Program-made: the position numbers and the translations under genes
The notes under the pieces: generated by a model
Told to the model about the DNA's origin: nothing
The model's input: only the letters and a program-made list of their open reading frames with translations
The model's database searches: none
Origin: an uncultured virus (IMG/VR IMGVR_UViG_3300033562_000771)
Taxonomy: Duplodnaviria; Heunggongvirae; Uroviricota; Caudoviricetes
Strand: one strand, 5' to 3'
Virus record (IMG/VR): IMGVR_UViG_3300033562_000771
Coordinates: 1-64,000 of that record
Length of the DNA: 64,000 nucleotides
Part shown: piece after piece, positions 3,962-51,821 of the stretch
Layout: every line of letters begins with the position of its first letter
Numbering within the stretch: position 1 is the stretch's first letter

Positions 3962-3976
3962 AATATCTCCTCGCTA

Positions 3977-3984
3977 TAAATACG
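3977..3984 (-). promoter_or_regulatory. Representative of the recurring CGTAT(C/T)TA upstream motif (putative early/middle promoter)
   Basis: Copies at 1665-1672, 2393-2400, 3977-3984, 17791-17798, 21187-21194, 23480-23487, 27133-27140 and 29697-29704, each shortly upstream of a start codon. Confidence 0.7.
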
Positions 3985-4008
3985 GGAGCTTTACTCAAAA
4001 GATCCATC

Positions 4009-6278: not shown

Positions 6279-7460
6279 TAGATTGGATCCAGTTGTAGCT
6301 GATTGCTGGCGTTAATAGATAACCTGAAGCGAGTACCTGAAGGATTACGCATTATAATACCGCCTGCAGTGCCATTATTTGTAGCCTCAAATTGAGTACC
6401 TCCAATAGCAGCGCCAGTGGAACCAATGTTTACATCAGTAATAATCTTAGCCCATGGCGACCAAGCACCAGTATCATTATCTCTCTTCGACCTTATGTAG
6501 TTATCAGCGTGAGAGCCATCAGAACCAGACCAACCTAGTAAGAGTTGATTTGCACCCCCACCTCTCATATGAAGAACATTACCATAAGAGGTAGGATAAC
6601 CATCCCCAGAATAACATCCATAGAAGTTTAATCCATCTGTACCCCTAGTGGTTCCTGGCGCGGCTGCTGTATAAATACCTTTCCAGGCTAAAGAACCATT
6701 GAAAGATGGAGCAGTGATCACACCAGCACTATTGATTCTTACACCACCCGTACCATTCCAAGCACCGATAGTTAAAGAGCCCTGGCCTGAAGTTCCATTG
6801 GTAAATACAAGAACATTATCACCTTCTTGTACTGCTGGATTATAAGCACCCGTAGGTTGGTTATTGACTAATAGATTGTAAGCAGAGCCGGTTTGAGATT
6901 TAATACTAGAACCGATGATTTGACCAGTAGAGGTTAAAGGTCTATACATTAAAATAGTTCCGCCAGCACTATTAGGAATGACCAAAGGTTGATCAATCCA
7001 AACACCGCTACTATTCCAAGAGCTAAAAGAAACATTATTAGCATCACAATACAAAGCTGCTCTGGTTTGACCTGCTACACCAAACTGATATCCACCTATT
7101 TGCCCTGCTACAGCATTTACTCTGAAAATACTTGTAGAAGATGGATGAGAAACACTTACTGTATCAGTAAATCCACCGGAAGTACCGATAAAGGGTAAGT
7201 GAGCCTGCACATAGTTTCCACCACTAGATAAGGATAAACAATCTGTTCCTGCGGTTTGCAGTTTTAAACCACCCTGAGAAGAGCTATTCATTAAATAGCT
7301 CCAGTTATTTGTTTTTGGTAAGTCTATATCACCTGTAAAAGTGGCAAGGCCAGTAGCAGCAATGGTTAGTTTTGTTTCTAATCCAAGGGCGTCTGATGTC
7401 TTGGTCTTGAAGTACAAACAGCCGTGGCCGTAGTCGTTTGCAACCTGCTCCATAGACACC
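6278..7460 (-). CDS. Tail fibre, C-terminal part (frameshifted from the N-terminal part), with a knob-like receptor-binding domain
   Basis: Gly/Ser/Thr-rich; YPTSYGNVL...YIRSKRD...WSPWAKI knob-type motif; protein-like sequence begins at EQVANDYG, where the upstream ORF loses its tail-fibre character. Confidence 0.7.
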
Positions 7461-9236
7461 ACCAAAAGCAATACCTGCGGATCTACCCATGGTAATACCA
7501 CAAACCACTTGATCCATTGAGGTACCATAGTTATTAGTGATCACCAGGGGTTTTGTTGACACCGCTGACGAATCTGTAAGAGTGCTAACTCCTGCGGCGA
7601 AGGTACCAGTGAAAGATCCTGAGAGAGCGTTAATGGAACCATTAGCCGTTATATTACCGTGGAAGTTGACATTATTAGTTCCAGTTGGTAACGTCATTAC
7701 ATAGGCGGTATTAGCAGCATTAACTAAAGAAAAATCATAGGTTGATCCGGTCTTAGGCCATAACAATAAGCCCTGAGAAGGAGTCCATAAAATACTTCCA
7801 GCAGCACTATTAGTAGACCCATTTACAAGTAAACAAGAAGCTTGAATCGAGCTAGTGAATGTTCCTGTAGTGGCTGTTAAAGCTGCTGATGTTATTTCAT
7901 TCAGAGCATAAGAAGGCTTTGTAGCAGCTTTAGCCCATGCTGAAACATCTGATGCAGGTCTAGAGTTAGTCAGTCTAGAATCACTGGAGAGTATTACAGA
8001 AGTGTTTGTAGCTCCAGGAGTGAAGGTAAGGATTCCAGCAGTACCAGGAGCTTTCATTTCAAAGCCTGTCCTGTCTCCTGTTGTTCTGAAGTATCCAGAG
8101 ATAGCTGAAGCCTCTTCAATCTCTAAGCCAGAAACAGCACCAGAAGAAGCTACACCATTCTTATTAAGTGTTATTAGCTTATCTGATACTGCAATGTTAG
8201 TAGTATTGATTGTAGCTAGTGTTCCAGCTATGGCTACAGTGTCTCCAGCACCACCAAGATTAATGGTAGTGGTTCCTGATCCTGTTCCTATGTTGATTGT
8301 TTGGGTAGTAGAAGCTGTTCCAAGATTGATTGCTGAAGCTGTTGATGTTCCTAGATTCAGGGTGGCGGCATCAGCGGCTAGTGCGGTAGTTGCGGTAGCT
8401 GCATTTCCAGTAGTGGATTGATTCAAGACAGGGAATGTGCAGTTAGTAAGGTTCCCACTGGATGGGGTGCCCAACGCCCCACCTGGGGCTACATAATCAG
8501 ATCCTGCTGTGGCCGCAACCAATGCAGAAGCACTTCCCTTCAGAATCCCTGAAATTGTAGTAGTTAAAGTAATAGCTGGGGTTGTAGTTGAGTTAGCTAC
8601 GCTACCCCCAAATCCATTTGCAGAAGCTACGGATACCGAGACTACGGTTCCGGTGTTTGAGGTATATCCTGAAGGATTCGTAGCATTGTATGGGGTAAAC
8701 CCTAGGGCTGTTGTGACGTCCCCTGAGGATATGGATGTGATATACGTTGAGGTATCCACACTCCAAGTGTTTTCCGCTGTTTTCTTTAGAAGACCCGTAG
8801 TTCCAGATAACTCTGCAATAGCCGTTAAGTCACCATCAAGCGGCTGATATACTGAGGCATGGTTATGTGAATCTAATGAATACGTAGACGTATCATAATT
8901 GATGACCCCAGCCGTAGATTTTACAAAACCAGTCCCAGTTAGGGGCTCCTGGAAATCTACCCCAGCCACGGCAGCTACTACACTAGATCCGTTCCCCTTG
9001 AGCAAACCTACAACAGTAGTAGTTATAGAGGACCCACCAAAAACAGACCATCCTGCAGACCCATAGATATAAGGGAGTTGGTCGGTAGTATTATAATAAA
9101 ACCTTCCCACGGCAAGGCTTCCAGAATCCCCAGTAACCTCTGTAGGGTGCGAGGCTAGGTTCTCCATAACCGCTTGAATAAACGGTATTTGATTAAAATC
9201 CATCGCGGATCTTTGTTCGATACCCTTCTTGTCCAT
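7329..9236 (-). CDS. Tail fibre, N-terminal part
   Basis: Typical fibre repeats (YQPLDGDLTAIA, VTTALGFTPYNATNPSGY, DKLITLNKNG, DVSAWAKAATKPSY); start placed at ATG 9236 after GGAGGG. Confidence 0.75.
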   Translation of the reverse strand: MDKKGIEQRSAMDFNQIPFIQAVMENLASHPTEVTGDSGSLAVGRFYYNTTDQLPYIYGSAGWSVFGGSSITTTVVGLLKGNGSSVVAAVAGVDFQEPLTGTGFVKSTAGVINYDTSTYSLDSHNHASVYQPLDGDLTAIAELSGTTGLLKKTAENTWSVDTSTYITSISSGDVTTALGFTPYNATNPSGYTSNTGTVVSVSVASANGFGGSVANSTTTPAITLTTTISGILKGSASALVAATAGSDYVAPGGALGTPSSGNLTNCTFPVLNQSTTGNAATATTALAADAATLNLGTSTASAINLGTASTTQTINIGTGSGTTTINLGGAGDTVAIAGTLATINTTNIAVSDKLITLNKNGVASSGAVSGLEIEEASAISGYFRTTGDRTGFEMKAPGTAGILTFTPGATNTSVILSSDSRLTNSRPASDVSAWAKAATKPSYALNEITSAALTATTGTFTSSIQASCLLVNGSTNSAAGSILWTPSQGLLLWPKTGSTYDFSLVNAANTAYVMTLPTGTNNVNFHGNITANGSINALSGSFTGTFAAGVSTLTDSSAVSTKPLVITNNYGTSMDQVVCGITMGRSAGIAFGGVYGAGCKRLRPRLFVLQDQDIRRPWIRNKTNHCCYWPCHFYR

Positions 9237-38369: not shown

Positions 38370-40850
38370 TCAATTTGAGTCAATATTAAGTTGAAAAGTT
38401 AGGTTTTCAAATGTTGGGTTCCCCTCGATAACTTTTATTTGAAGAAAGTCATCTGCCTGAAGAGTCTCTGATAGATTTGAGAAAAGTGTAACCCAGGAGT
38501 TGCCTGGAAGGGTGTCATCCAAGTTTAAGGTATACAAAGCTGTGGTTTCGCTATTCTTATAGATAGCTAACTGAGCTACACCAGATAATATAGTTAGACT
38601 ATTTCTAAATAACTTAATAGTTTTAAGCGTAGATGCGACTTCTATTAAATAGACAGGCTGACGATCTACAACAGTTAGGGGTGTTTCAAAAAACCATTTA
38701 AATCTAAACTGTTGGGTATTCCAGGAAGTCTTTTCAGCATCAGTCACAAACCTATTTAGAGAGTCCTGCTCAATTATGGAGGGTGGGTGCGTTAAAGGGT
38801 GGGCCTCTAAAAGGGCAAGCTTACTTGCTTGGTCCCCTGACATATACCCATCCACCCCACTTATTGCGGCGGGTATTGAGATTACAGGGGAAGTCCCGCC
38901 ACTTGAAAGAATCGGGAGCGTAGCTGAAATAGATGCAACACCCGTCCCCGTTGGAGTTGAGAAAGTCCCATCCGCACATAAAAATTGAGACGCATTAGGT
39001 GTGACCCCCGGAACGAGGCCCTTTGAAGTCCCAAAAACGTTTAATAGAGAAGTTGCTTGAGTTGCGGATAGCTCTTCAACATTTCCAGTAGACTCAGAAG
39101 ACCTCCCCAAAAATGTAGCACTTCCCACCAAAGCTAAATGAGGCAGGGTGACTTTATTAACCCCTATCTGTGTGACATTACCCAGTGAGGATACATCACC
39201 TAATAAATTAGCGTTTGTAGATACAGTAGCGGCATTCCCGGTAAGATCCCCAACGAAGGTGGTAGCAGCCACAGACGTCAATCCTTCAAGAGTATCTACG
39301 GAGCCCCCAAGAGATAACGTAGTGGTTCCAATACTAACAGTGGAATTCACAAGAGAACTATTAGGGATACCCGATAAACCAGCCCCTGACCCCTCAAATT
39401 GTATAGCTGAGAGCACCCCTGTTGAAGGTATAAACGATAAAGATGACTCGGTTGCTCGTAAAGGAGCCTCCCCAATAGCCCCCGCCCAGATAGGGTAAAC
39501 AGGAGTGCTCGTCCAAGTATCGCTGGAGATAACTAACTTAGTGGCAGTATCCGCAGAAGCAACTGCGCTAGAAATAGCTGAACCGGGAATATCCGTAATG
39601 TGGAACCCTTGAATAGCTGGAGACGTTGAAAAACTAGGGGCAAGTCCACCTACTAGGACCCCTGCGCCTGATGCAAATGAAGTAATCCCCTCGGAACTTT
39701 GGAATGGAACAGCTCCAGGGCTACCCCCACTTAAGTTAATAGTGGAGGTAGCAGCAGAAGCCGTTCCCGATAAATTTCCAACAAATGTAGACGCACTAAC
39801 AGAGGTTAAATTAGACAGGCTACTCGTGGATTCACCTAAAGAAATACTGGTAGAGCCTATCATAATACTTGAGTTGCTTAGGGACCCATTCGGCAAATCT
39901 GTTAGAAGCGCCCCTGAGCCACTAAAACCTGTTGCGTATAACACTCCAGTAGCAGGGATAAATGTAAGTTTGGAGCTAGATACCTTATGGGAGGATTCCC
40001 CATTAGCCTCAGAAACCCATGTTGGGTAAACCGTATTGAATGACTCATTAGAATCAGTAATACCTGTGGCAATGGCAGAGCTTACGCTACTAGAAATAGC
40101 GGACCCTGGAATCCCTGAGAAATGCAACCCCTGTAAAGAGGGGGTTTGTGTGAAGCTTGGAACCGCACCCCCAACTAGCACCCCAACCCCTGACGGGATA
40201 AAACTAGTCCCTCCCACCCCAGTTTGATATGGGATATACCCCGAGTTGCCCCCCGCTAGGTTAGTAGCTACCGTGGCTGATGAAGCATTCCCGGAAAGTG
40301 CCCCTAAAAAAGTTGTAGCTGCAATAGACACCAAGCCTGCCAGCGAGAGAGTTTCTTCTCCCAACGCTACTATGGACGTCCCTAGGCGCAAGGATGAGTT
40401 CACTAGCGCACCATTGGGGATCTCAGTGAGCCCAGCCCCCGATCCTGTAAAGACACTAGAGGCTAAGTTGCCCGTATTTGGGGTAAAGGACAACTTTGAC
40501 GATGATATACTAATCGCCTGGGGACCACTCCCAAGCACCCATGTGGGGAAGCATGTGGTAGTTATAGAAGATTCGTCAAATATAGCAGAGTTTATATCCG
40601 CAGAGGTTTTCCATAAAGATCCATCAAACGTGACTTCAAGAGCCTCATCAAGCACCCAAGTTGAGACACCTATTGTTGGGATGATAAATTTCCACCTACT
40701 GCCATCCCAGGTGGTTATTTGCATGGCGTGGGATGCCCAAACCCCACTAGGGTTTTCAGCAACGATGTATCTAGAGCCACGAACAGGAGTCTCTGGAGGG
40801 GCAGAGATACTGCGTGAGTTAACTGTGGTTGGGATATATATTGTTGCCAT
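38370..40850 (-). CDS. Tail fibre/tail-associated protein with an N-terminal DUF2793 domain and internal repeats
   Basis: PP..P..G.RYIVA..P.G.W......I..W.G..W.F..P; three ~160-aa repeats (FTP.TG.L....F.GSGA.L..IPN..L.NS). Confidence 0.75.
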   Translation of the reverse strand: MATIYIPTTVNSRSISAPPETPVRGSRYIVAENPSGVWASHAMQITTWDGSRWKFIIPTIGVSTWVLDEALEVTFDGSLWKTSADINSAIFDESSITTTCFPTWVLGSGPQAISISSSKLSFTPNTGNLASSVFTGSGAGLTEIPNGALVNSSLRLGTSIVALGEETLSLAGLVSIAATTFLGALSGNASSATVATNLAGGNSGYIPYQTGVGGTSFIPSGVGVLVGGAVPSFTQTPSLQGLHFSGIPGSAISSSVSSAIATGITDSNESFNTVYPTWVSEANGESSHKVSSSKLTFIPATGVLYATGFSGSGALLTDLPNGSLSNSSIMIGSTSISLGESTSSLSNLTSVSASTFVGNLSGTASAATSTINLSGGSPGAVPFQSSEGITSFASGAGVLVGGLAPSFSTSPAIQGFHITDIPGSAISSAVASADTATKLVISSDTWTSTPVYPIWAGAIGEAPLRATESSLSFIPSTGVLSAIQFEGSGAGLSGIPNSSLVNSTVSIGTTTLSLGGSVDTLEGLTSVAATTFVGDLTGNAATVSTNANLLGDVSSLGNVTQIGVNKVTLPHLALVGSATFLGRSSESTGNVEELSATQATSLLNVFGTSKGLVPGVTPNASQFLCADGTFSTPTGTGVASISATLPILSSGGTSPVISIPAAISGVDGYMSGDQASKLALLEAHPLTHPPSIIEQDSLNRFVTDAEKTSWNTQQFRFKWFFETPLTVVDRQPVYLIEVASTLKTIKLFRNSLTILSGVAQLAIYKNSETTALYTLNLDDTLPGNSWVTLFSNLSETLQADDFLQIKVIEGNPTFENLTFQLNIDSN

Positions 40851-40921: not shown

Positions 40922-43900
40922 TTAACTTGCTGCTGCAGATTTTTTACCCGACTTAGGGATATCAACAGTAATAAGCTTACTTACGGTAAAGGTGTCCCCT
41001 GCTAGATTGGTTATCGTTAATGTATAAGTAATGTCTTCGGAGGGGGTTACTTGGATTGCCTGCCCATTAGTTACAAACCCAATACCGTGATCTAAACTCA
41101 CAGAAGCAGCACCCCCGTCTACCGAGAAAGTAGGAGTGATAGCTACAGTGCCACCATGAAGTACTGATGAGTCCCCTTCAATACTTAAGCTTGGGGCCGC
41201 TAAGACTTGTATAACTCTTGAATTGGACTTAGCGGGATCTACCACAGACGTTGCTGTTATTGTAAAGGCACCTGTTGCCTCAGAAGTCCAATAGTTAGAA
41301 TCCCAAATACCAATACCAGACCCCGTGGTAGACCACGCAACTGAGGTGTCTACCGCCCCAGTAACTTCTGCGGTATATGCTCTACTGGTGTTAATGGTCT
41401 GATATGTAAATCCCAACTCCTGCGATGGAGTATTCACTACAACTATCTGTGGAGCTACCAAAACAGAGCTATCCACAAAGTCACTCGCCGCATTGGTCAC
41501 ACGTAGCGTGTATGTATTAGCAGCACTGGATACCAAGATCTCCTGACCAGAGATAGCACTCGCAGATACATTATTGGACCCTGCAGAAGTCCCAAGTATC
41601 GCAGTCCCACCCGTGAACGTTGGAGTTAGGGCTACAGTGGCTCCAACAAGAGGGTTTGTGGTATCAGCTACTAGATTTGCGGTGGCGGCAGCTACCACAG
41701 TTTCCGTAAAGCTCCGAGAGGTGACCCCATCAGCTTGAGCAGTTGCTGTAATAGTATAGGTTCCGGGGGTCCCAGGGGACGTCCAGGAACTCCCCGTCCA
41801 GGACCCACCCCCACCTGGGCCAGATGCTGTCCAAGTAATGAGATTGAAAGCCGCCCCAGCCGCAGTTGCATAGAATTGTTCAATAGTCCCTACAGTTGTA
41901 ATAGCGTTTGAAACCGTAATGGGGGTAAGTGTTACTTCAGTATTAGTAATGGTAATAGAAGCTATAGCGGAGTCGCCTGCAGCGTTCGTAACTGTTAGCG
42001 TATAGGATTTTGGAGTCCCTACCATAGCCCCCGTGCTCAAGTTAGCTTGGCCTGACGTAACGGTCCCAAACCCACTGAGAACCCCCACTCCATTAGTAAA
42101 GGTTGGAGTTAGAAATGCTGCAGATCCATAGGGGACTGGATTCGAAGAAGCAGTTAGTGAAGCAGTTGGCATCGCAACAGTTGTTACGGTATGTGTACGT
42201 GACTTGGTATTATCTGACTGGCTAGTTGCAGTAACTGTGTATGTCCCAATAGTTGCTGGGGCGGTATATAACCCGCTAGAAGTTATGGAGCCACCTGAGC
42301 ATGTCCAAGTAACTGCAGTATTTACAGCCCCTGTAACGGTAGCGTAGTATTGAACCTGACTTCCAACTGATTTCGTAATGCTAGCAGCATTTAAGTAGGT
42401 TACGTCCACGGGGAAATCAGAAACCCAAAAGAACCCATTGGCCGATATGTTAAATTGAATTGATAGGCGTAGATTACTCAAGTTCCCGAGAGTTTGGACT
42501 TGAGCAGGGGTCAAAGTTAACCCTGCCCCATTGGGGACAAGGGTAGGAGACGATATCCAACTTGCACCATTATCTAGGCTAATCCAACATGAGGTAGAGA
42601 GTGCTCCAGACCCACCAGCAAAAGCTATAGAAGGGATTGATAAGGAGGTTATATCTGAAATGCTGGGGAAATTATAAATCTGCATCCCATACAGTCCAGC
42701 GGGATTGGCAGTCCCGGTGGTATATGAGCTAGGGTTTGCATCTATGAGATTACCTGGAGTCCCTAATAAGGAACCCCCCGTGTGGGGAACTGCGTAGCTT
42801 GTTGCTCTGTAGCGAGAAGTTGTTTGGTTGCCAGGACTTCCTGGGGATGCTAGAGAGACTGCAACAGCATTTACGTTAACCGTTGCAGTAGCCTGGGCTG
42901 ATGTCCCAGCGGGGTTGGTGACGGTAAGTGTGTAAGTAGTGCCCACGGTAAGAGCTGGAGTATCCGAAGTGAGGCCACTGGCAACCGAACCAATCCCGTT
43001 GTTAATGACCCCGACACCGTTTGCAAACACATACGACAGTGTCCCTATAGCGCCTCTATCAATGGGATTACTAGCTACTGTAAAGCTGGAGATACTAGGA
43101 GCGGCATAACTAATGACAGAGGCCGTAGCTGTTACAACCCTACCCGCTGGATTTGTAACTGTGGCGGTATAAGTCTGTGAGGAACCTAATGTAGAGACCA
43201 CCCCCACACCGCTAGTGCAGCTTGCAGACGTATTAGATGAACCGGACCCGGTAGTTCCTAAGGTAGCGGTCCCACCCGTGAACGTGGGGGTAAGTGTTAC
43301 CGAGGCACCCTCTGTAATAATACCATCATTGGAAGTTCCACTAGCTTCCGTTAGAACTAGGGAAATTGTGGGAACGGCGTATACATTTACACCAACACTA
43401 GCAGTAGTAAAATCCCCCGCAGTGTTATACACGGTTAATGTGTATGTTTTATTGGAGTTAGGTGTTACTAGAACACCAGTTCCACTAGACACGGAAGGGT
43501 TAATATCCGAAGAACCCGACCCAGTGGTGCCAATCCTGGCAGAAGTGCCTGTAAATGTGGGGGTAATTGTTGTAGAATCCCCAGTGGTGATATTTGCTAG
43601 CGCAGTTACAAAATTAGAAATGGTTGGTAAAGCTACTAACGTTACAGATGTAGTTGCCACCTTTGTTGCATCAGCGGCAGATGTTGCTGTAATGGTGTAA
43701 TTTCCAGGAGTTGCAGGAGCAGTCCAAACCCCTCCTGCGGTAATGGACCCTCCTGTGCAAGTCCAATTAATTGTGGAATTAAGCGCTCCACTTACAGAGG
43801 AACTAAATGTAGTCTGGGTATTTATAGACTTTGTAGGAGCCGCTGGAGAAATAGCCGAAACAGACACAGTCTGGGGAATCACAGTTGTAGAAGTAGTGGC

Positions 43901-45208
43901 CGTAGCCCCAGCCAAATTTGTTACGGTCAAAGTATAGGTTTGAGCTGAAGTAATAGCTGAAGTAGTAAAAGCTTTGGGTGAAGAACCGATACCGCCCACG
44001 CCATTATCAACGATAGCAGACCCATCTGAGAAGGTGGCAGTAATGTCTACCGTAGCTCCGTATAGAGGATTAGAAGTGGCTGGAACTAAACTAGTAGCAA
44101 TTGGAAGGGCAACTAAGTTAACTGCAGTAGATGTAAATTTAGACCCATCAGCGGCAGATGTTGCTGTAATGGTGTAATTACCAGGAGTTGCTGGTGCAGT
44201 CCATATACCCCCGGATGTGATAGATCCACCTGTGCAAGTCCAGTTGATTGTGGAATTAATCGCTCCACTTACAGAGGAACTAAATGTAGTCTGGGTATTT
44301 ACAGACTTTGTAGGCGCTGCGGGAGAAATCGCTGAAACCGATACAGTCTGGGGTGTGATTGAGACCCCTGCGGTTGTAGTCGCAGGGGTTGTGGCCCCAT
44401 TGGACACCGTTAAAGTATACGCTAGCGTAGAGGTGACAGCTCCCGTCCCATAAGCGGTGCCACTTGCAACAGCTCCCACTCCGGTAATACTACCGGATCC
44501 ATTTGAGAACGTTGGTGTAATTGTAACGGATGCACCATATAACGGATTTGTATTAGAAGCCGTGAACGATGTAATAGAAGGTGCCGCTACTACATAGATC
44601 GTTTGCGTAGCCGTTACGGAAGTTCCTGCAGCGTTAGTTACTGTTAATGTATACGTCTGAGAGGCCCCTGGAGACAGTGCCCCAGTTGTTCCAGAAGCAG
44701 CTACAGACCCAACGGTAGGTGAAATAGAATAACTAGTTCCATTAGAAGCTACCCAAGATAAAGTTGTCGAGAGTCCAGCAGTGATTGTCTTCTGGCCAGT
44801 AAAACTTGAGATGATTGGCGCTGGGACTACAGTAACTGTTTGGGAAGAGGTGGTGGAATCCCCCGCTGCATTTGTTGCTGTAAGAGTGTATGTCTGAGAA
44901 GCCGAGGGAGTTACTGAGGTGCTACCAGACGCCATCACCCCACCTACTGTAGGGGAGATATTTACAGAAGTAGCATTAGAAACATTCCAGGATAGCGTGG
45001 TGCTAGTTCCAGCAGTTACAGTTGTAGCCCCCACAAAACTATTAATAATGGTAGCCGCGACAACATTCACAGTTACCTGGGAAGTTGCACTCTGCCCTGC
45101 AGCGTTAGTAGATGTAAGGGTATACGTTCTGGAGGCGGAGAGTGCCCCAGTGCTATAAGCTTGACCGCTAGTTACTACACCAATACCTTGATCAATTGAA
45201 CCGCTCAT
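40922..45208 (-). CDS. Large Ig-like repeat virion surface/tail protein
   Basis: Many ~80-aa YTLTVTN.AG repeats and W...GG.I...G.WTAP.T.G.YTITATS (Big-type) repeats; internal DNA duplication near 43670-43875 and 44147-44352. Confidence 0.8.
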   Translation of the reverse strand: MSGSIDQGIGVVTSGQAYSTGALSASRTYTLTSTNAAGQSATSQVTVNVVAATIINSFVGATTVTAGTSTTLSWNVSNATSVNISPTVGGVMASGSTSVTPSASQTYTLTATNAAGDSTTSSQTVTVVPAPIISSFTGQKTITAGLSTTLSWVASNGTSYSISPTVGSVAASGTTGALSPGASQTYTLTVTNAAGTSVTATQTIYVVAAPSITSFTASNTNPLYGASVTITPTFSNGSGSITGVGAVASGTAYGTGAVTSTLAYTLTVSNGATTPATTTAGVSITPQTVSVSAISPAAPTKSVNTQTTFSSSVSGAINSTINWTCTGGSITSGGIWTAPATPGNYTITATSAADGSKFTSTAVNLVALPIATSLVPATSNPLYGATVDITATFSDGSAIVDNGVGGIGSSPKAFTTSAITSAQTYTLTVTNLAGATATTSTTVIPQTVSVSAISPAAPTKSINTQTTFSSSVSGALNSTINWTCTGGSITAGGVWTAPATPGNYTITATSAADATKVATTSVTLVALPTISNFVTALANITTGDSTTITPTFTGTSARIGTTGSGSSDINPSVSSGTGVLVTPNSNKTYTLTVYNTAGDFTTASVGVNVYAVPTISLVLTEASGTSNDGIITEGASVTLTPTFTGGTATLGTTGSGSSNTSASCTSGVGVVSTLGSSQTYTATVTNPAGRVVTATASVISYAAPSISSFTVASNPIDRGAIGTLSYVFANGVGVINNGIGSVASGLTSDTPALTVGTTYTLTVTNPAGTSAQATATVNVNAVAVSLASPGSPGNQTTSRYRATSYAVPHTGGSLLGTPGNLIDANPSSYTTGTANPAGLYGMQIYNFPSISDITSLSIPSIAFAGGSGALSTSCWISLDNGASWISSPTLVPNGAGLTLTPAQVQTLGNLSNLRLSIQFNISANGFFWVSDFPVDVTYLNAASITKSVGSQVQYYATVTGAVNTAVTWTCSGGSITSSGLYTAPATIGTYTVTATSQSDNTKSRTHTVTTVAMPTASLTASSNPVPYGSAAFLTPTFTNGVGVLSGFGTVTSGQANLSTGAMVGTPKSYTLTVTNAAGDSAIASITITNTEVTLTPITVSNAITTVGTIEQFYATAAGAAFNLITWTASGPGGGGSWTGSSWTSPGTPGTYTITATAQADGVTSRSFTETVVAAATANLVADTTNPLVGATVALTPTFTGGTAILGTSAGSNNVSASAISGQEILVSSAANTYTLRVTNAASDFVDSSVLVAPQIVVVNTPSQELGFTYQTINTSRAYTAEVTGAVDTSVAWSTTGSGIGIWDSNYWTSEATGAFTITATSVVDPAKSNSRVIQVLAAPSLSIEGDSSVLHGGTVAITPTFSVDGGAASVSLDHGIGFVTNGQAIQVTPSEDITYTLTITNLAGDTFTVSKLITVDIPKSGKKSAAAS

Positions 45209-45220
45209 TCCATGTCCCCT

Positions 45221-45847
45221 TTAAGTAAATATTGGTGTTATTGTAGTGGATTGACCAGCGGTGATGGTTCCCCTAGTGGCGGAAAGGCTAGCTGTTGGGA
45301 GAGCAACTATATACACAGTGCAGCTATTACTCTTGGAAGAATCCGCAACTGAAGTATTCCAAATAGTGTATGTGCCTGAGGTACCAGGGGCGGTGTAGAG
45401 TCCAGATCCGGTAATGGACCCGCCGTTGGTTGACCATGTTACGGAGGTGTTAACAGCCCCCGAAACCCCCCCGCTTGTGAACTGTCGTGTATACCCCACA
45501 GAAGTATACTGACCACCAGGAGTAGGAGCCCCAACGGAGATTGTTGGGACGGTTAACGTTGAACCCCCAGATCCAGTCCCACTAGCAGTTGTAACTGAAA
45601 GAACCCCCGACCACCCTTGGTGAGCCGTGGTAAGCGTAAATGTAATGGAAGATGCAGATACAACGGTGTATGAGGATACCGAATTAGAACCTATCTTAAC
45701 CGCAGTTGCTCCCGTAAAATTAGCGCCTGTTACGGTTATAGTTGATCCAATTGTGGCTGACCCAGACCATGAAGAAACTGTAGGGGGAGGGGTGGTCCAG
45801 TTACCCTCTATCCACGCATCATATACATATGCAATAGCATAACTCAT
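45221..45847 (-). CDS. IPT/TIG plus Ig-like domain protein (middle fragment of a split virion protein)
   Basis: P.V.S.S....G..ITVTGANFTGATAV.IG (TIG) followed by a Big-like repeat; ends mid-repeat. Confidence 0.75.
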   Translation of the reverse strand: MSYAIAYVYDAWIEGNWTTPPPTVSSWSGSATIGSTITVTGANFTGATAVKIGSNSVSSYTVVSASSITFTLTTAHQGWSGVLSVTTASGTGSGGSTLTVPTISVGAPTPGGQYTSVGYTRQFTSGGVSGAVNTSVTWSTNGGSITGSGLYTAPGTSGTYTIWNTSVADSSKSNSCTVYIVALPTASLSATRGTITAGQSTTITPIFT

Positions 45848-45896
45848 GTATCACCTCAATTTATATATTTGTCATTACATATCAATTTATTAGGTA

Positions 45897-46361
45897 TTAC
45901 ACAGGTGCATCAGGGTAAATACAGTCACCAAAGGAACACAACACTCCATCCTTTACATTACACACAAAAGACTCGTCAGCTAGAAGAATAAATTTAACAC
46001 GAACATTAGCCATGTTAGTACCTACAGGGAGTGCATAGGAGATTGTCTGACGAAGCATTTTATTACTATCGTCTCCTATAAATATGGTGGCATAATTCGT
46101 AGCATCGGTGCTTACTTGGACAGTAACCCTGGACCCAGCTTGCTCTGTAAAGACATCGGGCATCAGATCTATCTTTAGCGTTAGCGTAGTATACGTATGT
46201 TGAGCCGCAGAGAATCCTTGTAGATTCCTTGTTATGGAAAGCCCCGTAGTATTGTTGGTTACAGTTGCTACTGTCGTGGTATTGCCATCATAAGCATATG
46301 CTGGGGTGGATATGCTAGCGGTAGTGTCCCATGAAGATGGTCTTAATATATCAATCGCCAT
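45897..46361 (-). CDS. Beta-sandwich virion protein fragment with a Cys-containing C-terminal tail
   Basis: I.RP, AYDG...T, VQVSTD, NVRVKF similar to the 5616-6278 protein; ends FVCNVKDGVLCSFGDCIYPDAPV. Confidence 0.65.
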   Translation of the reverse strand: MAIDILRPSSWDTTASISTPAYAYDGNTTTVATVTNNTTGLSITRNLQGFSAAQHTYTTLTLKIDLMPDVFTEQAGSRVTVQVSTDATNYATIFIGDDSNKMLRQTISYALPVGTNMANVRVKFILLADESFVCNVKDGVLCSFGDCIYPDAPV

Positions 46362-47622
46362 TTTCTACTCCTAAAAAAGGTATTGTGGAGCCTCGCTGAA
46401 GTAAAGCTATCTTAGATTTTCTCAGGTGACTTAAAAGATCGTGTCTAACCAAGTTGCATCTAAATCTCTTGGCATCTGCATCCTGATTAGTTATAAAACA
46501 ACCTCCAGCACAAGAAAATCTAGCTACACAAGAAACGCAATCTCCAACAACTGAAGTAAATTTGGATAGCTTGTCAAAGTTAAATACATAGTTGCCCTGT
46601 GTTGAATCAAACCTACCCACAAAAAGAGGATCTAACGCGGAACTCTCTGGGGTTGACTTTCTATGGCAAGTTGCCACTAGCCCGTTATTCATGAAGGTTA
46701 AAGAGGTATGTGGGTTGGTTAATCCACACCCAACAAACTTAATAGGAAGATATTCAGACTCTTCCATATCCCCATAGGAAACATGCCATAGCTTACCCAT
46801 CTGTCGTTGTTTAAGCCTTTCAAACGCTCCCAAAAAACGCAGATGATCTTGACATGTTAACGGGTCGGACACACTTCCTACATAAGGCTGTAAAACAACT
46901 CGAATAGGTTCTTTAAACATATCCGTATAACCCGGATGTTCTTGGAGGGTATCTAAAAAGTCAGCAATTGTTGTTATATAATCTAGCATTGGATCAGTAA
47001 TAGTCCCTCGAATCCCAAAGGGAATCCTATTCTCAATGAGTAGCAACAAAGCTTGTTTAACTATGTCAAAGGTATCCTGTCCCCCTAAGAAAGGTCTCTG
47101 GAAATTCTGGATATATTCACTTCCATCAAATGATGCGGAAACCCTAGAGAAATACTTCTTAATAAGATGGATATTTCTATTAGTTATTAAAGATAAATTG
47201 GTGGTTAATGAGAATGAATGCACCTTCCCCGTAGCGAGAAGCTTTTCACAGAGTTCAAAGAGAGAACTCTCAGTTGTGAGGGACTCCCCCTGAGGTAGGA
47301 AGGAGACCTTTACGGTCCCATTAACTTGGGATACAAGTGATATAATGGCGGACACCATCTCAGGGGACATATCCGGCTCATTATTAGCGTGTGCGTCTGC
47401 TGCATAACAGTATTTACAGGCAAAGTTACACTTGGATGTTAAAGATATGTTAATAGACCTTAGATCCTTAGGGTCAAATTCCTGGAAATCTCTAGGTGTT
47501 TTTGGGGGCCTTTCAAACTCAACAAGACTCTCCCCAGCATCTACAAGACAAAGATGTAAAGGGAAGTATCTATATGCGACTCCATCGAGTTCAACTAACA
47601 CATGCGGACTTTTGAAGGCCAT
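46351..47622 (-). CDS. Radical SAM/SPASM-domain protein (peptide/protein maturase family)
   Basis: CNFACKYC (CxxxCxxC), QGE, TTN, S.DG...QN.QR; SPASM CG...C...CVSC..RFSCAGGC...C. Confidence 0.92.
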   Translation of the reverse strand: MAFKSPHVLVELDGVAYRYFPLHLCLVDAGESLVEFERPPKTPRDFQEFDPKDLRSINISLTSKCNFACKYCYAADAHANNEPDMSPEMVSAIISLVSQVNGTVKVSFLPQGESLTTESSLFELCEKLLATGKVHSFSLTTNLSLITNRNIHLIKKYFSRVSASFDGSEYIQNFQRPFLGGQDTFDIVKQALLLLIENRIPFGIRGTITDPMLDYITTIADFLDTLQEHPGYTDMFKEPIRVVLQPYVGSVSDPLTCQDHLRFLGAFERLKQRQMGKLWHVSYGDMEESEYLPIKFVGCGLTNPHTSLTFMNNGLVATCHRKSTPESSALDPLFVGRFDSTQGNYVFNFDKLSKFTSVVGDCVSCVARFSCAGGCFITNQDADAKRFRCNLVRHDLLSHLRKSKIALLQRGSTIPFLGVENGD

Positions 47623-47630
47623 TTAAGATC

Positions 47631-48332
47631 CTAGTAGACAGCCTGCTCAATATCTAATTGAACAGTAAGATTATCTAGGGTGGCGTTGCCTGCGGTCACA
47701 ACCACCTCAAGATAATCACCGACTACAAGAGGGGAACTTAATCCCGTAAGGGCATCAACCCACAATTTACCGGAGGCATTATCTGGGATCGTAACTGTGT
47801 AGAGTGCTGTTGAGCTACTATTTTTATAAATAGCTATGGAAGCCACTCCGGACACAGCAGTAAGGGTATTTCTAAACCAGCGAATTGCCTTTAAATTCGA
47901 TAGTGTTTCCACGCGATACACAGGCTGGCGATCTAGGATATTAAGAGGAGTTTCATAAAACCAGCGAAAAGGTGCCCGTAGTGCCAATGACGTCAGAGCA
48001 ATCTGCGTAGCTGTTGACACGGGTTTATCCATGTCAGAAGTATTATTTACATTGTCTAATCCAATGTAGGTAGCTGTAACAACAGGGGTATTCCATGCAG
48101 ATCCATCCCAAGTAACCTCAACTCCCTCGTCAACAATCCAGGTAGAGACCCCCTGGATGGGCTTAATAAACTTCCAGGAGGACCCTGTCCAGGTGGCGAT
48201 GTGATGGTCTTTACCTTCCCAGAGACCTACTGCTGTTGCAGCAATAATCAGTTTGGATTGTCTGGTAGGATTTGAAACGGGTGCTTTGTAAGCACGGGAA
48301 TCAACCGTAGTAGGAATGAGGGGGCTAGCCAT
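47631..48332 (-). CDS. DUF2793-domain tail-associated protein
   Basis: DUF2793-type N-terminus; GLDNVNNTSD.DKPVSTATQ.AL fibre repeat; C-terminus homologous to that of the 38370-40850 protein. Confidence 0.75.
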   Translation of the reverse strand: MASPLIPTTVDSRAYKAPVSNPTRQSKLIIAATAVGLWEGKDHHIATWTGSSWKFIKPIQGVSTWIVDEGVEVTWDGSAWNTPVVTATYIGLDNVNNTSDMDKPVSTATQIALTSLALRAPFRWFYETPLNILDRQPVYRVETLSNLKAIRWFRNTLTAVSGVASIAIYKNSSSTALYTVTIPDNASGKLWVDALTGLSSPLVVGDYLEVVVTAGNATLDNLTVQLDIEQAVY

Positions 48333-49492
48333 ATATAGTTCTCACAAGAAAGGGGGTCCATGAGGAGTGTAGTAGATGGGTATGTTGTTATGATATGATC
48401 TTGGGCTCTTGAGCTGTTAGGAACTAAACCACCTTATAGTTTCACACTTCCGCCAGTTACATTACCCCCAACGGTTCCGGGTATTGCGTTGTTCGCAATA
48501 ATCACCGATAGAGCCTCACCGACATACCTGATACCAACAGGCTGTGCCCCAGTGAACGTGGCTGGTTTGAGCCTAATCGTAGACCCATTTATTGCATAGG
48601 CCATGATGCTTATCGTATAGGCTGATGCAATAAATACTGCTATCGAATACCCCATGGTGCCAACGTATCCCCCGTCTTCCGCGATAATGTGATGGATAGC
48701 GGGGCCATCAATAGAGTAATTCCCAATGATCTGGATTACAGAGCTTCTAGCCCACATATGCTGATCGTGTGCATATCCAAAAGAGATATCCGAAATAGTA
48801 AGGTATGCTCCCAGTTGCGCGAACAAAGCTAGCGAGCCATTTGCGATAACCCTAAACCCTCGAATAGTCCACTGTGATCTCATGCAATTAACCAACGGGC
48901 TGGACGTATTCGATATTATACAGTTTGATGGTGTTGTGATGTTCCCCTCAATGATTGGGGGCTTCCAGTTCCCGACATATTCACCCAATAACAAATTGGT
49001 CCCGCTCGTGTTGTAAGTTCCATCTGCGACCTTGATGGTCACCTGGAATATATTCATGTCTATGTCTAAGCTAACAACATTGACTGCTTTCTGGATAGTG
49101 AGGAAAGCTCCACTAGCATCATTGACTAGGCCGGTATTGCTGTCATTACCGTCTGTCCTGACGTAATAGATCCGATCAGCATGAAGGATTTCACGAGATT
49201 CACCTCCGCCGCTTCCACCAGAAGGAACCACCCATGCAGATCCATCCCAAGTAGCCTCAACTCCCTCATCAACAATCCAGGTAGAGACCCCCTGGATAGG
49301 CTTAATAAACTTCCAGGAGGACCCTGTCCAGGTGGCGATGTGATGGTCTTTACCTTCCCAGAGACCTACTGCTGTTGCAGCAATAATTAGTTTGGATTGT
49401 CTGGTAGGATTTGAAATGGGTGCTTTGTAAGCACGGGAATCAACCGTAGTAGGTATGAGTGGACTAGCCATATATAGTTCTCACAAGAAAGG
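48093..49492. repeat. Near-identical 261-bp direct repeat (48093-48353 and 49232-49492)
   Basis: Covers the upstream region and first ~80 codons of both DUF2793 genes; few substitutions. Confidence 0.92.
48434..49471 (-). CDS. DUF2793-domain tail spike-like protein with a beta-helix-type C-terminus
   Basis: YYVRTDGNDSNTG......FLTIQKAV...I.VADGTY (pectin-lyase-like fold entry motif). Confidence 0.75.
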   Translation of the reverse strand: MASPLIPTTVDSRAYKAPISNPTRQSKLIIAATAVGLWEGKDHHIATWTGSSWKFIKPIQGVSTWIVDEGVEATWDGSAWVVPSGGSGGGESREILHADRIYYVRTDGNDSNTGLVNDASGAFLTIQKAVNVVSLDIDMNIFQVTIKVADGTYNTSGTNLLLGEYVGNWKPPIIEGNITTPSNCIISNTSSPLVNCMRSQWTIRGFRVIANGSLALFAQLGAYLTISDISFGYAHDQHMWARSSVIQIIGNYSIDGPAIHHIIAEDGGYVGTMGYSIAVFIASAYTISIMAYAINGSTIRLKPATFTGAQPVGIRYVGEALSVIIANNAIPGTVGGNVTGGSVKL

Positions 49493-49509: not shown

Positions 49510-50337
49510 TTAGCTGGCATTCTGAATGAGATTGGTGCAGGTATATATAGACCCGTCCCACAGGAACTCAAAGTAGTCAGTAGCATTTGCTGTTAAAGAA
49601 CCCTCAGGTTGATAACCATTTGGCCACGCTACATTAGACCCCCAGTATAAGTATCGGCCCCCAGTGGCATCCTGAGATACCTTAACGACAACCTTATCAC
49701 AGACCGTGCTACCTAGGTCTGATAGGGATAACACAGTTTCACCCGTGAGAATAACTGAAGCAAAGCGCGTAGGACCCCAATTAATTGTGGTTGCTCCAAA
49801 GACATTGCCCATAGTAGTAATCAGAACTGCAGTGCTCCCACCAAAAGATCCAACGGCACCCACCCCTGTAATGGAGGTTAGAAGGAATATGCCTGGAAAA
49901 GTAGCGGAGGCAGCTACGTTGAGTTTTACCGTCCCATTGTTAATGGGCTGAACTTCTACATATGTTTCTGTAGGGGTTCCAGAGGATATGTCAAAAACGG
50001 TCACATCAACAGACTGTGTGCTCAGAGTATGCGAGATGGTAAAAGAGGCGATGTCACCATCAACCGTCCAGTCATCTGCTAGAAACGACCCGGAAAGAAC
50101 ATTAGCCTTGGAGATGGCAGTTGCCTTCCAAAGTTTAAGGGTAGCATCATAAAGAGGAACCTGGGAATCCTGAGGTGCCACCACATTGGGGACAACACCA
50201 ACACCGCTGTCTAAACCCATGCGGAGCTGCTGATCTGAATCCATATACAGATGCGAGGGTGTATCAATAATTTCAGACTGCGGAGTGAAGTTTACCCCGT
50301 CAAAAAGTTGACGCCTAATACGATCAGATATGCCCAT
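49510..50337 (-). CDS. Tail-associated structural protein
   Basis: I.H.L.T..V.V.V; QDATGGR...W...V.WP.G..P..S..ANA.D motifs seen in tail proteins. Confidence 0.65.
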   Translation of the reverse strand: MGISDRIRRQLFDGVNFTPQSEIIDTPSHLYMDSDQQLRMGLDSGVGVVPNVVAPQDSQVPLYDATLKLWKATAISKANVLSGSFLADDWTVDGDIASFTISHTLSTQSVDVTVFDISSGTPTETYVEVQPINNGTVKLNVAASATFPGIFLLTSITGVGAVGSFGGSTAVLITTMGNVFGATTINWGPTRFASVILTGETVLSLSDLGSTVCDKVVVKVSQDATGGRYLYWGSNVAWPNGYQPEGSLTANATDYFEFLWDGSIYTCTNLIQNAS

Positions 50338-50420: not shown

Positions 50421-51821
50421 TCAAATAACTCGGTAGCAATTTCGCCCGGATCCCTTAGCATCGTAAAGGGCCTGATCTACCCGAGCCATAATAGCCTCTG
50501 CCGTATCAGTCATTTTTAATCCAGTAATACCGGATGAGACAGTCATGTTAAACGAAAGTGCCCCATGTGAAACAACTGTTTCAGACACAGATTGTCTAAT
50601 TCTCTCCACGAGAATCTTTGTGGCATCTACAGAAGTTCCCTGAAGAACCACTGCAAACTCCTCACCTCCCAATCTACCTAGGAAATCTGATTGGCGTAGA
50701 CACCCCTGAATGACACCCACAAATTGGAGCAGAGCTGAGTCCCCGGCTGGGTGCCCATATGTATCATTAATTTTCTTGAAGTAATCTATGTCTAGCATAG
50801 CCACGGATAGAGGTATTTTATATTTAAAAGCTCGATCCATCTCATCATTCAACCGTTCCATAAAATATCTACGGTTAATCACACCAGTAAGCCCATCCAG
50901 AGTTGCAAAATCCGTGAGGATAGACTCTTTTTTCTTCTGAGCAGTGATATCTGTAGACACGCCGACAAACCCAAATACCTCCCCCTTAGCACCCCTCAGC
51001 ACAGTATATCTAGTCAGCATCCAAATCGTAGACCCATCCTTACGGTAGACCTCTGCCTCTACTGAGTCCCCTATATACGTAGGGTCATCTAAAAAGCGAA
51101 GGCGTTTTTGGATAGTTTTAACCGTTCCAGGGGCGTATCGTTTTTCTAAAGGTAGCTTTAAAATCTCATCCACGGTAAACCCGGTATACCTAGTCACAGC
51201 AGGGTTTACATAAGACATATTAAAAGATTGGTCCATCATCCATACAATGTCAGTTAGAGATTCTGTTAGCGTTCTAAACTTAACCTCACTTAAGCTGAGC
51301 TGAAGCTCCGCAATTTTTCTATCCGTGATATCTTCTGAAACTCCGATAACTCCAGTAGGAACATCATTAACTATTAAAGGACATTTTGTGGTAAGTGTGT
51401 AGCGTTGTTTACTATCCGAGGGTGGACTCAAGGAGTAGACTCTTTTCAAAGTTGTCAACACCTCAAGATCCTCTGATCTGAAGTGTAGCGCTAAACTACT
51501 ATCCACCAGTTCGTAGTCAGTTTTTCCTATAACTTTATCCATAGATAGTTTATTCATATCCGCGAAAGGGCGGTTGCACCCCAGGAACACACTATCTGTG
51601 TCCTTCCAAAACACCCCCTGGGGGATTGAATCCAGGATACTGCTAATAAAAAGACGATCTTTAGCTAGTCTTTTACGCTCAGAATCCCAAGGTTTTGCGA
51701 GATCATTTAGCATAGAGACAAATTCACTACACTCAGGTGAAAGACCCTCAAGTGGGATGGTCCCACCCTTACGGAGGGTCTCAAAATTATCCCTTAATAG
51801 ATCAAGGCAAGACTTGGTCAT
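50421..51821 (-). CDS. PAS-PAS-GGDEF diguanylate cyclase
   Basis: Two PAS/PAC domains (VFWKD....F.GCN; Y.NPA...G; DIT..K); D.LTG..NRR, DIDYFK.IND.YGH..GD, RQSD I-site and GGEEF active site. Confidence 0.95.
   Translation of the reverse strand: MTKSCLDLLRDNFETLRKGGTIPLEGLSPECSEFVSMLNDLAKPWDSERKRLAKDRLFISSILDSIPQGVFWKDTDSVFLGCNRPFADMNKLSMDKVIGKTDYELVDSSLALHFRSEDLEVLTTLKRVYSLSPPSDSKQRYTLTTKCPLIVNDVPTGVIGVSEDITDRKIAELQLSLSEVKFRTLTESLTDIVWMMDQSFNMSYVNPAVTRYTGFTVDEILKLPLEKRYAPGTVKTIQKRLRFLDDPTYIGDSVEAEVYRKDGSTIWMLTRYTVLRGAKGEVFGFVGVSTDITAQKKKESILTDFATLDGLTGVINRRYFMERLNDEMDRAFKYKIPLSVAMLDIDYFKKINDTYGHPAGDSALLQFVGVIQGCLRQSDFLGRLGGEEFAVVLQGTSVDATKILVERIRQSVSETVVSHGALSFNMTVSSGITGLKMTDTAEAIMARVDQALYDAKGSGRNCYRVI

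Follow-up and report, generated by a model that had tools for sequence, protein, structure and literature searches.

A Radical SAM/SPASM Enzyme Encoded Beside a Split, Predicted Jelly-Roll Protein with a Cys-X3-Asp Tail in the Tail-Fibre Module of a Jumbo Phage

Introduction

Radical S-adenosylmethionine (SAM) enzymes of the SPASM subgroup are recognised by a C-terminal motif of seven Cys residues (CX9-15GX4C, gap, CX2CX5CX3C, gap, C). The substrates known for the thioether-forming members are small secreted peptides and, in very few cases, cellular proteins, and a virus has apparently recruited one such enzyme to modify a structural protein of its own. The virus is an uncultured member of the Caudoviricetes (IMG/VR IMGVR_UViG_3300033562_000771), and the DNA that was analysed, which we call the window, is the first 64,000 nucleotides (nt) of its 128,938-bp IMG/VR record, which is rated 61% complete. 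We describe a three-gene unit that lies within the tail-fibre module of this jumbo phage and consists of a radical SAM/SPASM enzyme, a 154-residue protein with a Cys/Asp tail and a 208-residue protein that begins with a strand belonging to the domain of its neighbor. On balance we lean towards the view of a fibre adhesin built from two pieces, with a tail into which the enzyme introduces thioether crosslinks; we infer both the chemistry and the location on the virion.

Several described systems resemble parts of this unit. PapB maturases have an N-terminal recognition element (RRE) for peptides that are made by ribosomes and modified after translation (RiPPs), which binds the leader peptide. 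QhpD, which acts in the maturation of quinohemoprotein amine dehydrogenase, is a SPASM enzyme that crosslinks Cys to Asp or Glu inside a protein that later becomes one subunit of a bigger complex, CteB forms sactionine (alpha-carbon) links in a peptide of 45 residues with six Cys residues, and anSME enzymes recognise the motif Cys/Ser-x-Pro/Ala-x-Arg. With regard to protein assembly, the subunits of chaperone-usher pili are joined by donor-strand complementation, in which a beta-sandwich without its C-terminal strand is completed by the N-terminal strand of the next protein, and in SpyTag/SpyCatcher a reconstituted domain is locked covalently through an Asp. Virion proteins are also modified, the isopeptide bonds of the HK97 capsid being an example. 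We know of no radical SAM crosslink between two chains. As described in passages of PMC9413430, PapB links the Cys of a Cys-X3-Asp/Glu motif to its Asp or Glu, accepts unrelated sequences and tolerates Cys-Xn-Asp with n from 0 to 6; the products are Cys-to-Asp/Glu thioethers (passages of PMC9413430 and PMC12373016). According to the summary parts of PMC13692751, CrpC puts ranthionine crosslinks on the Cys-rich protein CrpA of Methanococcus voltae. In the relevant section of PMC5332604, the radical SAM genes of marine phages are merely counted.

The Radical SAM/SPASM Enzyme

The enzyme gene (46351..47622, minus strand) is intact and encodes 423 residues, which score 45.3 bits with Pfam PF04055, where the cut-off is 29.5. 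Codons 65-72 (47407..47430, minus strand) encode CNFACKYC, the CX3CX2C site of the [4Fe-4S] cluster that binds SAM, and its three Cys residues (C65, C69 and C72) are invariant in all six aligned sequences. The SPASM region (codons 299-389; 46456..46728, minus strand) reads C-x14-G-x4-C ... C-x2-C-x5-C-x3-C ... C, and the positions C299, G314, C319, C362, C365, C371, C375 and C389 are likewise invariant in 6/6. The protein therefore has the features of the radical SAM superfamily as well as the seven-Cys motif of the SPASM subgroup. A reading made earlier from the letters and open reading frames (ORFs) only, referred to below as the sequence-only reading, had placed an intact enzyme of this type among tail-fibre and immunoglobulin (Ig) genes, and the invariant Cys residues, the Pfam score and the Pfam and PHROG matches of the neighbors bear this out.

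The closest NCBIfam family is the PapB ranthipeptide maturase NF047865 (E 4e-28, residues 54-382), followed by QhpD-type (76.5 bits), nif11 (74.6 bits), SCIFF (67.5 bits) and anSME (60.9 bits) families, and the enzyme reaches none of the NCBIfam cut-offs. The match to QhpD (TIGR03906, E 1.6e-21, against a cut-off of 453 bits) covers only residues 43-218, and the neighbors of the enzyme are fibre genes, which places it outside that family. The same is true of anSME (TIGR03942), with a cut-off of 349 bits, and the target motif of anSME is absent from the tail of the 154-residue protein. The closest solved relative is the thioether synthase CteB (5wgg, E 2.2e-17), which aligns over the radical SAM core and the SPASM region.

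Apart from the enzyme itself, the nearest protein among 5.8 billion searched (P0003) is only 27% identical, and the enzyme is therefore isolated. When phages were searched with it by tblastn, 37 records were matched, all with less than 60% identity, and the matches in Campylobacter phages are confined to the radical SAM core. One match labelled 'Bacteriophage sp.' (L004) was rejected as a phage homologue, since a SCIFF peptide and maturase beside SecDF indicate bacterial DNA. At the nucleotide level, positions 45000-48400 had no blastn match in 50,697 phage records. A Calditrichia metagenome-assembled genome (L018) encodes a radical SAM/SPASM protein (3950-5305, plus strand) that is 38% identical to P0003. 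About 290 nt downstream of it is a WD40-repeat protein (5594-7024, plus strand) with a Cys-rich C-terminal tail of CTCNTV-like units and then an Arg/Gly-rich end. This pair may be another case of a folded protein with a Cys tail adjoining a SPASM enzyme.

The 154-Residue Protein and Its Cys/Asp Tail

The gene for the 154-residue protein (45897..46361, minus strand) begins inside the enzyme gene. The stop of the latter and the ATG of the former overlap by 11 nt (46351..46361, minus strand), as the sequence-only reading had noted with the same coordinates, and the overlap is consistent with translational coupling. The protein consists of a jelly-roll domain without its last strand and a Cys/Asp tail, as judged from AlphaFold2, Foldseek and the relatives P0009, P0011 and P0012.

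The tail (residues 132-154, FVCNVKDGVLCSFGDCIYPDAPV; 45900..45968, minus strand) is the proposed substrate of the enzyme. It contains all of the Cys residues of the protein, at 134, 142 and 147, each with an Asp at +4, so that it has three C-X3-D motifs (CNVKD, CSFGD and CIYPD). This exceeds chance. The 53 minus-strand ORFs of at least 100 residues contain 18,119 residues (Cys 1.09%, Asp 5.2%) and 19 CxxxD motifs, three of which are in the tail, and 23-residue segments with at least three CxxxD occur nowhere else in these ORFs. By our arithmetic, the chance of an Asp at +4 for all three Cys residues is about 1.4e-4, given 5.2% Asp. The combination of this tail with PapB as the best family match of the enzyme is the strongest point of the case, and the sequence-only reading had not mentioned it.

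The protein differs from a RiPP precursor, in which a short leader and a core are followed by proteolytic release, because the tail ends a 154-residue protein of which residues 1-130 are modelled as a folded jelly roll. No protease gene was found by Pfam and PHROG among the neighbors scanned. Among the other neighbors, a 233-residue protein has no Cys and the 208-residue protein has one, so there is no further Cys cluster. The folded domain in place of a leader, together with an enzyme in which Pfam finds no RRE, recalls enzymes that act on proteins, such as anSME, QhpD and CrpC with CrpA.

AlphaFold2, with a seven-row alignment, models residues 1-130 as a beta-sandwich (mean predicted local distance difference test score, pLDDT, 71.6; predicted template modelling (TM) score 0.69), which would be a galactose-binding-like jelly roll. 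The top Foldseek match is CBM32 (2w1u_B, E 7.8e-4, TM 0.47-0.49), and then come Eph ligand-binding, reelin-B and APC10 domains, with TM scores of 0.47-0.58 overall and 0.58 for reelin 2e26_A. Fold-level leads in the Atlas were CBM32, F5_F8_type_C and MAM, all with scores below 0.9. The unsplit relative P0011 matches Reelin_subrepeat-B below the cut-off (22.3 versus 27 bits).

The Split Domain and the Proposed Donated Strand

The 154-residue ORF is followed by an AT-rich spacer of 49 nt (45848..45896, minus strand), in which 11 nt are G or C (22%, versus about 45% in the window). The spacer contains the ribosome-binding site GAGGTG (45852-45857, minus strand) 4 nt ahead of the ATG of the next ORF, in agreement with the earlier description of the spacer. 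The 208-residue protein (45221..45847, minus strand) starts with the donated last strand and continues with a TIG domain (PF01833, E 2.7e-6, residues 23-99) and an Ig-like domain. It opens with MSYAIAYVYDAWIEG, which includes the strand VYDAWIEG. Codons 4-15 (AIAYVYDAWIEG; 45803..45838, minus strand) thus encode in trans the last strand of the jelly roll.

That this strand belongs to the preceding domain follows from unsplit relatives, which end the same domain with a matching strand. Its counterparts in cis are AFIRVYEAWTEG in P0011, VVDVWTEG in the metagenome locus L013 and FWDVWVEG in the locus L015. The strand is therefore in cis in these three and in trans in the window phage and in a second phage, and the co-folding described below adds support from models. 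When a motif for the last strand was drawn up, with these sequences already in view, and all six frames of the 128,938-bp genome were searched with it, there was a single match, which lies where the 208-residue ORF begins.

The sequence-only reading had likewise proposed that the missing strand begins the next ORF. Its comparator was the protein at 5616-6278, which resembles the 154-residue protein only weakly (BLASTP E 0.004, 25% over 56 residues; hhalign E 0.0046, probability 7.6%). The idea of the missing strand stands, but on the evidence of the unsplit relatives and not of that comparator. The comparator is the second gene of a pair at 5616-7528 (minus strand), where a 416-residue tail-fibre protein (PHROG tail-fibre, E 3e-18) is followed directly by the 220-residue protein, which ends in GSFYIKDVYIEAEN. 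A second radical SAM gene beside this possible paralogue was considered and rejected, the ORF at 6278-7528 being that of the tail-fibre protein. The order of a fibre gene and then a jelly-roll-like gene recurs at 5616-7528 and in the metagenome loci L013-L015, each time without a radical SAM gene.

The 154-residue protein (three-row alignment) was co-folded with residues 1-105 of the 208-residue protein (two-row alignment). The three-row alignment came from the split family only, and so the cis strand of the unsplit relatives could not bias the result. The interface score ipSAE was 0.90 in three of three runs, and the best of three controls gave 0.00; the runs share at least 98% of their contacts, with a pLDDT of at least 92 for the partner. 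Only residues 1-19 of the 208-residue product form the interface, with residues 1-8, 55-73 and 126-131 of the 154-residue protein. The donated segment lies antiparallel to residues 61-67 and beside residues 4-6, and residues 126-131, just ahead of the tail, are in contact with the partner. These models support the docking of the N-terminal strand of the 208-residue protein in an open slot of the jelly roll. Strand complementation, as first proposed from the letters, accordingly has on its side the cis strand of the relatives, the same split in the second phage and, with the caution due to models, the co-fold.

A second interruption is found at the other end of the 208-residue ORF. An in-frame TAA (45221-45223) and 12 nt separate it from the ATG of a 1428-residue ORF (45209..45223, minus strand), which cuts an Ig-like repeat mid-way. 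Translation across the TAA gives ...TITPIFT*RGHGMSGSIDQGIG..., with four codons (RGHG) between TAA and ATG, and an intact repeat for comparison within the 1428-residue protein reads ...TITPTFSNGSGSITGVGAV.... The 208-residue product is thus the head of a larger Ig-repeat protein, and the TAA reflects either another fission that splits a domain or a nonsense change of recent date. None of 44 tRNAs found by ARAGORN in the phage has a stop anticodon that would suppress TAA, one further call having an unreadable two-base anticodon, and TAA is the commonest stop, with 34 cases among the 66 minus-strand open frames that are 200 codons or longer.

Promoter signals were also sought. The motif TATAAATW, which we take to be T4 late-promoter-like, occurs 13 times versus 7.9 expected (standard deviation 2.9); 7 of 100 shuffles reach 13, and most occurrences are on the non-coding strand. 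A sigma-70 scan gave two sites versus 6.6 expected, one of them in the spacer with 9 of 12 matches, and this is no evidence of a promoter.

A Second Phage and the Unsplit Relatives

The same layout is present in a second phage, a 105,575-bp IMG/VR contig (L006) whose proteins are 26-42% identical overall to those of the window phage. The order there is a 1079-residue fibre, a 118-residue CxxCxxCC protein, a radical SAM/SPASM enzyme (41% identical to the window enzyme), a 156-residue protein, a TGA with an 11-nt gap, and a 1644-residue protein. The TAA of the enzyme gene directly abuts the ATG of the 156-residue protein, which is 26-27% identical to the 154-residue ORF, ends in ...YGASNYTGGCARGDACCINLG and has a tail (GGCARGDACCINLG) with three Cys residues, including CARGD. 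The 1644-residue protein starts with MTATLNVYETYILG and continues with TIG/Ig repeats; its first 210 residues are 42% identical to the 208-residue protein, and it is one ORF where the window has two, of 208 and 1428 residues. Because the same loop is broken in both phages, yet the length of the gap and the frame offset differ, we consider the arrangement to be selected for and not a shared sequencing or recoding artefact.

The 118-residue protein (4281-4637, plus strand), between the fibre gene and the enzyme gene, is a putative zinc- or iron-chelating protein (PF03692, E 6.4e-12), and it may be a helper for an Fe-S enzyme. The single genome record of the window phage that was searched has no PF03692 gene.

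A third lineage is represented by one protein (P0009), 74% identical to the 156-residue protein and with the tail GGCSRGDSCCIQLG. A profile of the Cys-tailed subfamily found only three proteins, from three lineages, among 5.8 billion, and in all three there are exactly three Cys residues, all of them in the tail, with one C-x-x-G-D each. The PapB-type substrate motif Cys-X3-Asp/Glu is therefore present in the neighbor protein three times in the window tail, as CARGD in the second phage and as CSRGD in the third lineage. Two checks that had been set for the sequence-only reading come out in its favor, namely that the tail Cys residues are conserved (three Cys, tail only, in 3/3 lineages) and that the orthologous enzyme has a Cys-tailed neighbor directly downstream in both contigs with context.

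Scans of viral contigs found the system only in the window phage and in the second phage. A metagenome scan gave four loci, the window's own sequence and three unsplit or partial relatives, and when HMMER was run in full against 1.84 billion representatives, six matched at E <=0.001, of which P0010 and P0013 were set aside as repeat proteins. P0011 (160 residues) is unsplit, with ...IKLTVIADSYYYIDAFIRVYEAWTEG... and the strand ...VYEAWTEG in cis; L013 is unsplit, with ...ASVVDVWTEG...; and L015 is unsplit, with ...IFFWDVWVEG... and then an FN3-like domain. P0011 has no Cys, and L013 and L015 have two each, scattered near the C-terminus. Directly upstream in L013, L014 and L015 is a fibre-like ORF and not a radical SAM gene. 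Gene order and the place of the split are thus conserved in the two phages, and the unsplit relatives found have neither a clustered Cys tail nor, in L013-L015, a radical SAM gene directly upstream.

The Phage and Its Tail-Fibre Module

A 278,785-bp IMG/VR contig matches the junction, with 13,269 of 13,269 compared bases identical, and so the phage is a jumbo phage. A 1,627-bp metagenome contig spans 45468-47094 with a junction identical to that of the window, and a contig of the run X2 has the junction with no differences, although its length equals that of the metagenome contig and the two may come from one data set. The stretch is also present with no differences in contigs of runs that are labelled microbial mat metagenome, X2 filling 30 of 30 bins with three contigs.

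The genes of the region are all on the minus strand, in the order 48434-49471, 47631-48332, the enzyme, the 154-residue ORF, the 49-nt spacer, the 208-residue ORF and the 1428-residue ORF. The gene at 47631..48332 (minus strand) encodes the 233-residue fibre-like protein with a DUF2793 N-terminus (Pfam E 6.7e-16; tail-fibre PHROGs), and its stop is 8 nt ahead of the ATG of the enzyme. Its C-terminal domain resembles the end of the 1079-residue fibre of the second phage, as read from the ORF lists. The fibre-like gene at 48434-49471 (minus strand) also has a DUF2793 N-terminus, and DUF2793/tail-fibre PHROG matches are given by this gene and by those at 49510-50337 and 38370-40850. The 1428-residue Ig-repeat protein (40922..45208, minus strand) continues the stalk of the 208-residue protein; it matches phrog_2155, 'virion structural protein' (E 1e-24), and has an I-set match below the cut-off. 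The PHROG and Pfam names put all of the neighbors among tail-fibre or virion structural proteins.

The proteins of 47631-48332 and 48434-49471 (both on the minus strand) have near-identical N-terminal stretches of about 80 residues (MASPLIPTTVDSRAYKAP...) and differing C-terminal domains, as if an attachment module had been duplicated and its tips exchanged. Between a portal-like gene and the fibre genes is a PAS-PAS-GGDEF diguanylate cyclase (50421-51821, minus strand; GGDEF E 1.4e-42), and at 4009-4617 (minus strand) a GIY-YIG nuclease is fused to a response-regulator receiver domain. The 44 tRNA genes are outside the window, on the minus strand of G000:C1 at about 75,900-106,600, together with a tmRNA with the tag AEDTMLLQAA (ARAGORN). 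The terminase-like and portal-like proteins of the window had no match in the record of the second phage (G001), a 38%-complete fragment.

Proposed Mechanism and Alternative Explanations

We propose the following sequence of events. The enzyme and the truncated jelly roll would be made together from their overlapping genes, and the enzyme would act on the free C-terminal Cys-X3-Asp tail. By analogy with PapB, hydrogen would be abstracted from the Asp side chain and the carbon joined to the Cys sulfur, giving up to three small thioether rings with a loss of 2 Da per ring. The N-terminal strand of the 208-residue protein (residues ~4-15) would then fill the slot and complete the fold, and the modified domain would thereby be hung on a long TIG/Ig-repeat stalk. 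With the gene split at this loop, the enzyme would meet a peptide terminus that is free and unfolded, unlike a loop in the interior of a folded domain. The rings might stiffen or protect a receptor-binding tip, for example where disulfides are reduced. A thioether, unlike a disulfide, would survive reducing surroundings, which would fit the mat habitat. The tail is thus presumably the substrate of the enzyme and a Cys-Asp thioether the probable product, and the interpretation of the sequence-only reading as a whole is supported.

Several points weigh against this interpretation. With 98.6 bits against a cut-off of 340 for NF047865, the enzyme is not a member of the PapB family, the Pfam SPASM model does not match it at E 0.01, and at the same threshold Pfam finds no PqqD/RRE family in it, there being only about 44 residues ahead of its core compared with about 85 in CteB. 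The number of CxxxD motifs varies, with three in the window tail and one each in the second phage and in P0009. The enzyme and the Cys tail co-occur in two of two contigs with context, which share ancestry, and there are three lineages in total. Residues 131-154 have a pLDDT of 30-40 and no confident structure, which leaves the placement of the tail relative to the joint unmodelled. Two halves of one domain, such as these, tend to pass a co-fold by their likeness to single-chain folds, and the calibration of the ipSAE mark, which was reached by 116 of the 157 solved complexes and by 2 of the 215 mismatched pairs, is only roughly valid since our own small alignments were used. The comparison with the unsplit relatives is based on short contigs (1.7-4 kb). 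Finally, the location of the 154- and 208-residue proteins on the virion is predicted from the PHROG and Pfam names of their neighbors.

The alternatives can be ranked, in decreasing weight, as another chemistry or a metal-binding tail, a link between the two proteins, accidental decay and a recoded fusion. It is unlikely, although of some weight, that the tail is not a thioether substrate at all. It could bind a metal or an Fe-S cluster or form disulfides, or the enzyme could make a sactionine, a formylglycine or a C-C link or have another target. The number of three Cys residues is kept more strictly than the CxxxD count, the metal-chelating protein of the second phage is encoded just upstream of its radical SAM gene, and the window enzyme is below every NCBIfam cut-off, all of which would fit such a role. 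However, the top-scoring SPASM families all modify Cys-containing peptides or proteins, the anSME target motif and other Cys clusters nearby are missing, the window phage has no counterpart of the chelating protein in its record, and the coupling of the enzyme to the ORF with the tail is conserved. Less probable still, we think, is that the enzyme joins a tail Cys of the 154-residue protein to an acidic residue, Asp or Glu, in the donated strand (in the window D10 or E14; E10 in the second phage) and so makes a non-covalent joint covalent. An acidic residue is indeed present in the strand in both phages, the tail leaves the modelled fold at residue 131, right after the residues (126-131) predicted to contact the N-terminal segment of the partner, and the tolerance of PapB for spacing and sequence, as given in passages of PMC9413430, would permit it. 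But the acidic residue is a feature of the fold, since it is equally present in the unsplit relatives without the enzyme (VYEAWTEG, VVDVWTEG and FWDVWVEG), the tail has its own Asp at +4 of every Cys, and the crosslinks treated in the passages concerned of PMC9413430, PMC12373016 and PMC13692751 lie within a single peptide or protein substrate. A cyclised tail that closes over the donated strand is a variant that we regard as equally improbable.

Two further explanations concern the split itself. A nonsense change or indel could have broken a fibre gene next to a radical SAM gene that is an unrelated passenger, and the in-frame TAA between the 208- and 1428-residue ORFs indicates that this string of genes is prone to interruption. 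Such decay seems to us very improbable, because a phage only 26-42% identical is interrupted at the same position and likewise has a ribosome-binding site and an ATG there, with gaps that differ in length (49 nt and 11 nt); moreover, both halves have open frames, the enzyme beside them is intact in both phages, and the sequence is identical across several assemblies. A single fused protein, made by frameshifting, readthrough or ribosome hopping over the spacer, is the least credible of all. In length the 49-nt gap is reminiscent of the 50 nt that are bypassed in T4 gene 60, and the phage has T4-like genes (RIIA/RIIB and RNA ligase). Yet in the downstream frame a stop precedes the ATG in both phages, by one codon in the window (TGA TAC ATG) and by two in the second (TGA CAT ATG), additional stops occur in the zero frame, and the offset between the frames is not the same (+1 and +2, respectively). 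A hop to the only GTG that matches the take-off codon would put the ribosome out of frame, with a stop 10 codons further on, and the second phage has no matching GGA landing site. The stops in the target frames led us to reject all three routes to a fusion.

Significance

If crosslinking of the tail is correct, phage particles can bear RiPP-type crosslinks, which would be a new class of post-translational modification of virions. Enzymes of this kind that lack an RRE could then use a folded domain as their 'leader', and the fission of a loop, mended by strand complementation, would be a route to graft a RiPP core onto a folded protein. The unit might also be a compact natural tool, in which a ~15-residue tag and a ~130-residue catcher are combined with a leader-independent thioether ligase. 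Should the improbable link between tail and donated strand, or the closed tail, be true instead, nature would have its own enzymatic, redox-proof version of SpyTag/SpyCatcher, and a RiPP-type modification by a radical SAM enzyme would for the first time be found to build a virus particle. The system is rare, being found in three lineages.

Comparison with Known Systems

The components are all of known kinds: the enzyme is a thioether maturase of the SPASM type, the adhesin domain is a jelly roll, and the two pieces would be joined by strand complementation. What we did not find described in a full-text literature search is their combination and the viral structural setting; the search found no SPASM enzyme of a phage that had been linked to a virion or fibre protein, in agreement with the sequence-only reading, which knew of no equivalent.

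The freyrasin pair PapB/PapA is alike in that a SPASM enzyme adjoins a substrate with repeated Cys-X3-Asp motifs, and PapB is the top NCBIfam family of the window enzyme. However, the score of 98.6 bits is far from the cut-off of 340 and the N-terminus is not of RRE length. Moreover, the window 'precursor' is no short leader peptide but a predicted folded jelly roll of 130 residues in a phage fibre module, its motifs number three (one in the relatives) instead of six, and no protease or exporter gene is nearby. QhpD/QhpC is represented by the second-best match of the enzyme (TIGR03906), but its substrate is unrelated, and the window has a phage structural module in place of a dehydrogenase context. 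CrpC/CrpA, as far as the passages of PMC13692751 on this pair go, is a precedent for a SPASM enzyme that acts on a protein and not on a short peptide. It differs in that CrpC has a predicted RRE (same passages), that CrpA is Cys-rich throughout whereas the window Cys residues are confined to a C-terminal tail, and that the pair is archaeal and cellular, with no split domain. CteB is the closest solved structure by sequence profile, but it has about 85 residues ahead of its core, compared with about 44 in the window enzyme. With respect to the two-piece domain, the window fold is a jelly roll, unlike the Ig fold of chaperone-usher pili and the CnaB fold of SpyCatcher, and there is neither a chaperone nor an usher. 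Finally, any covalent step in the window system, unlike that of SpyCatcher, would be enzymatic and radical-based and would proceed via Cys.

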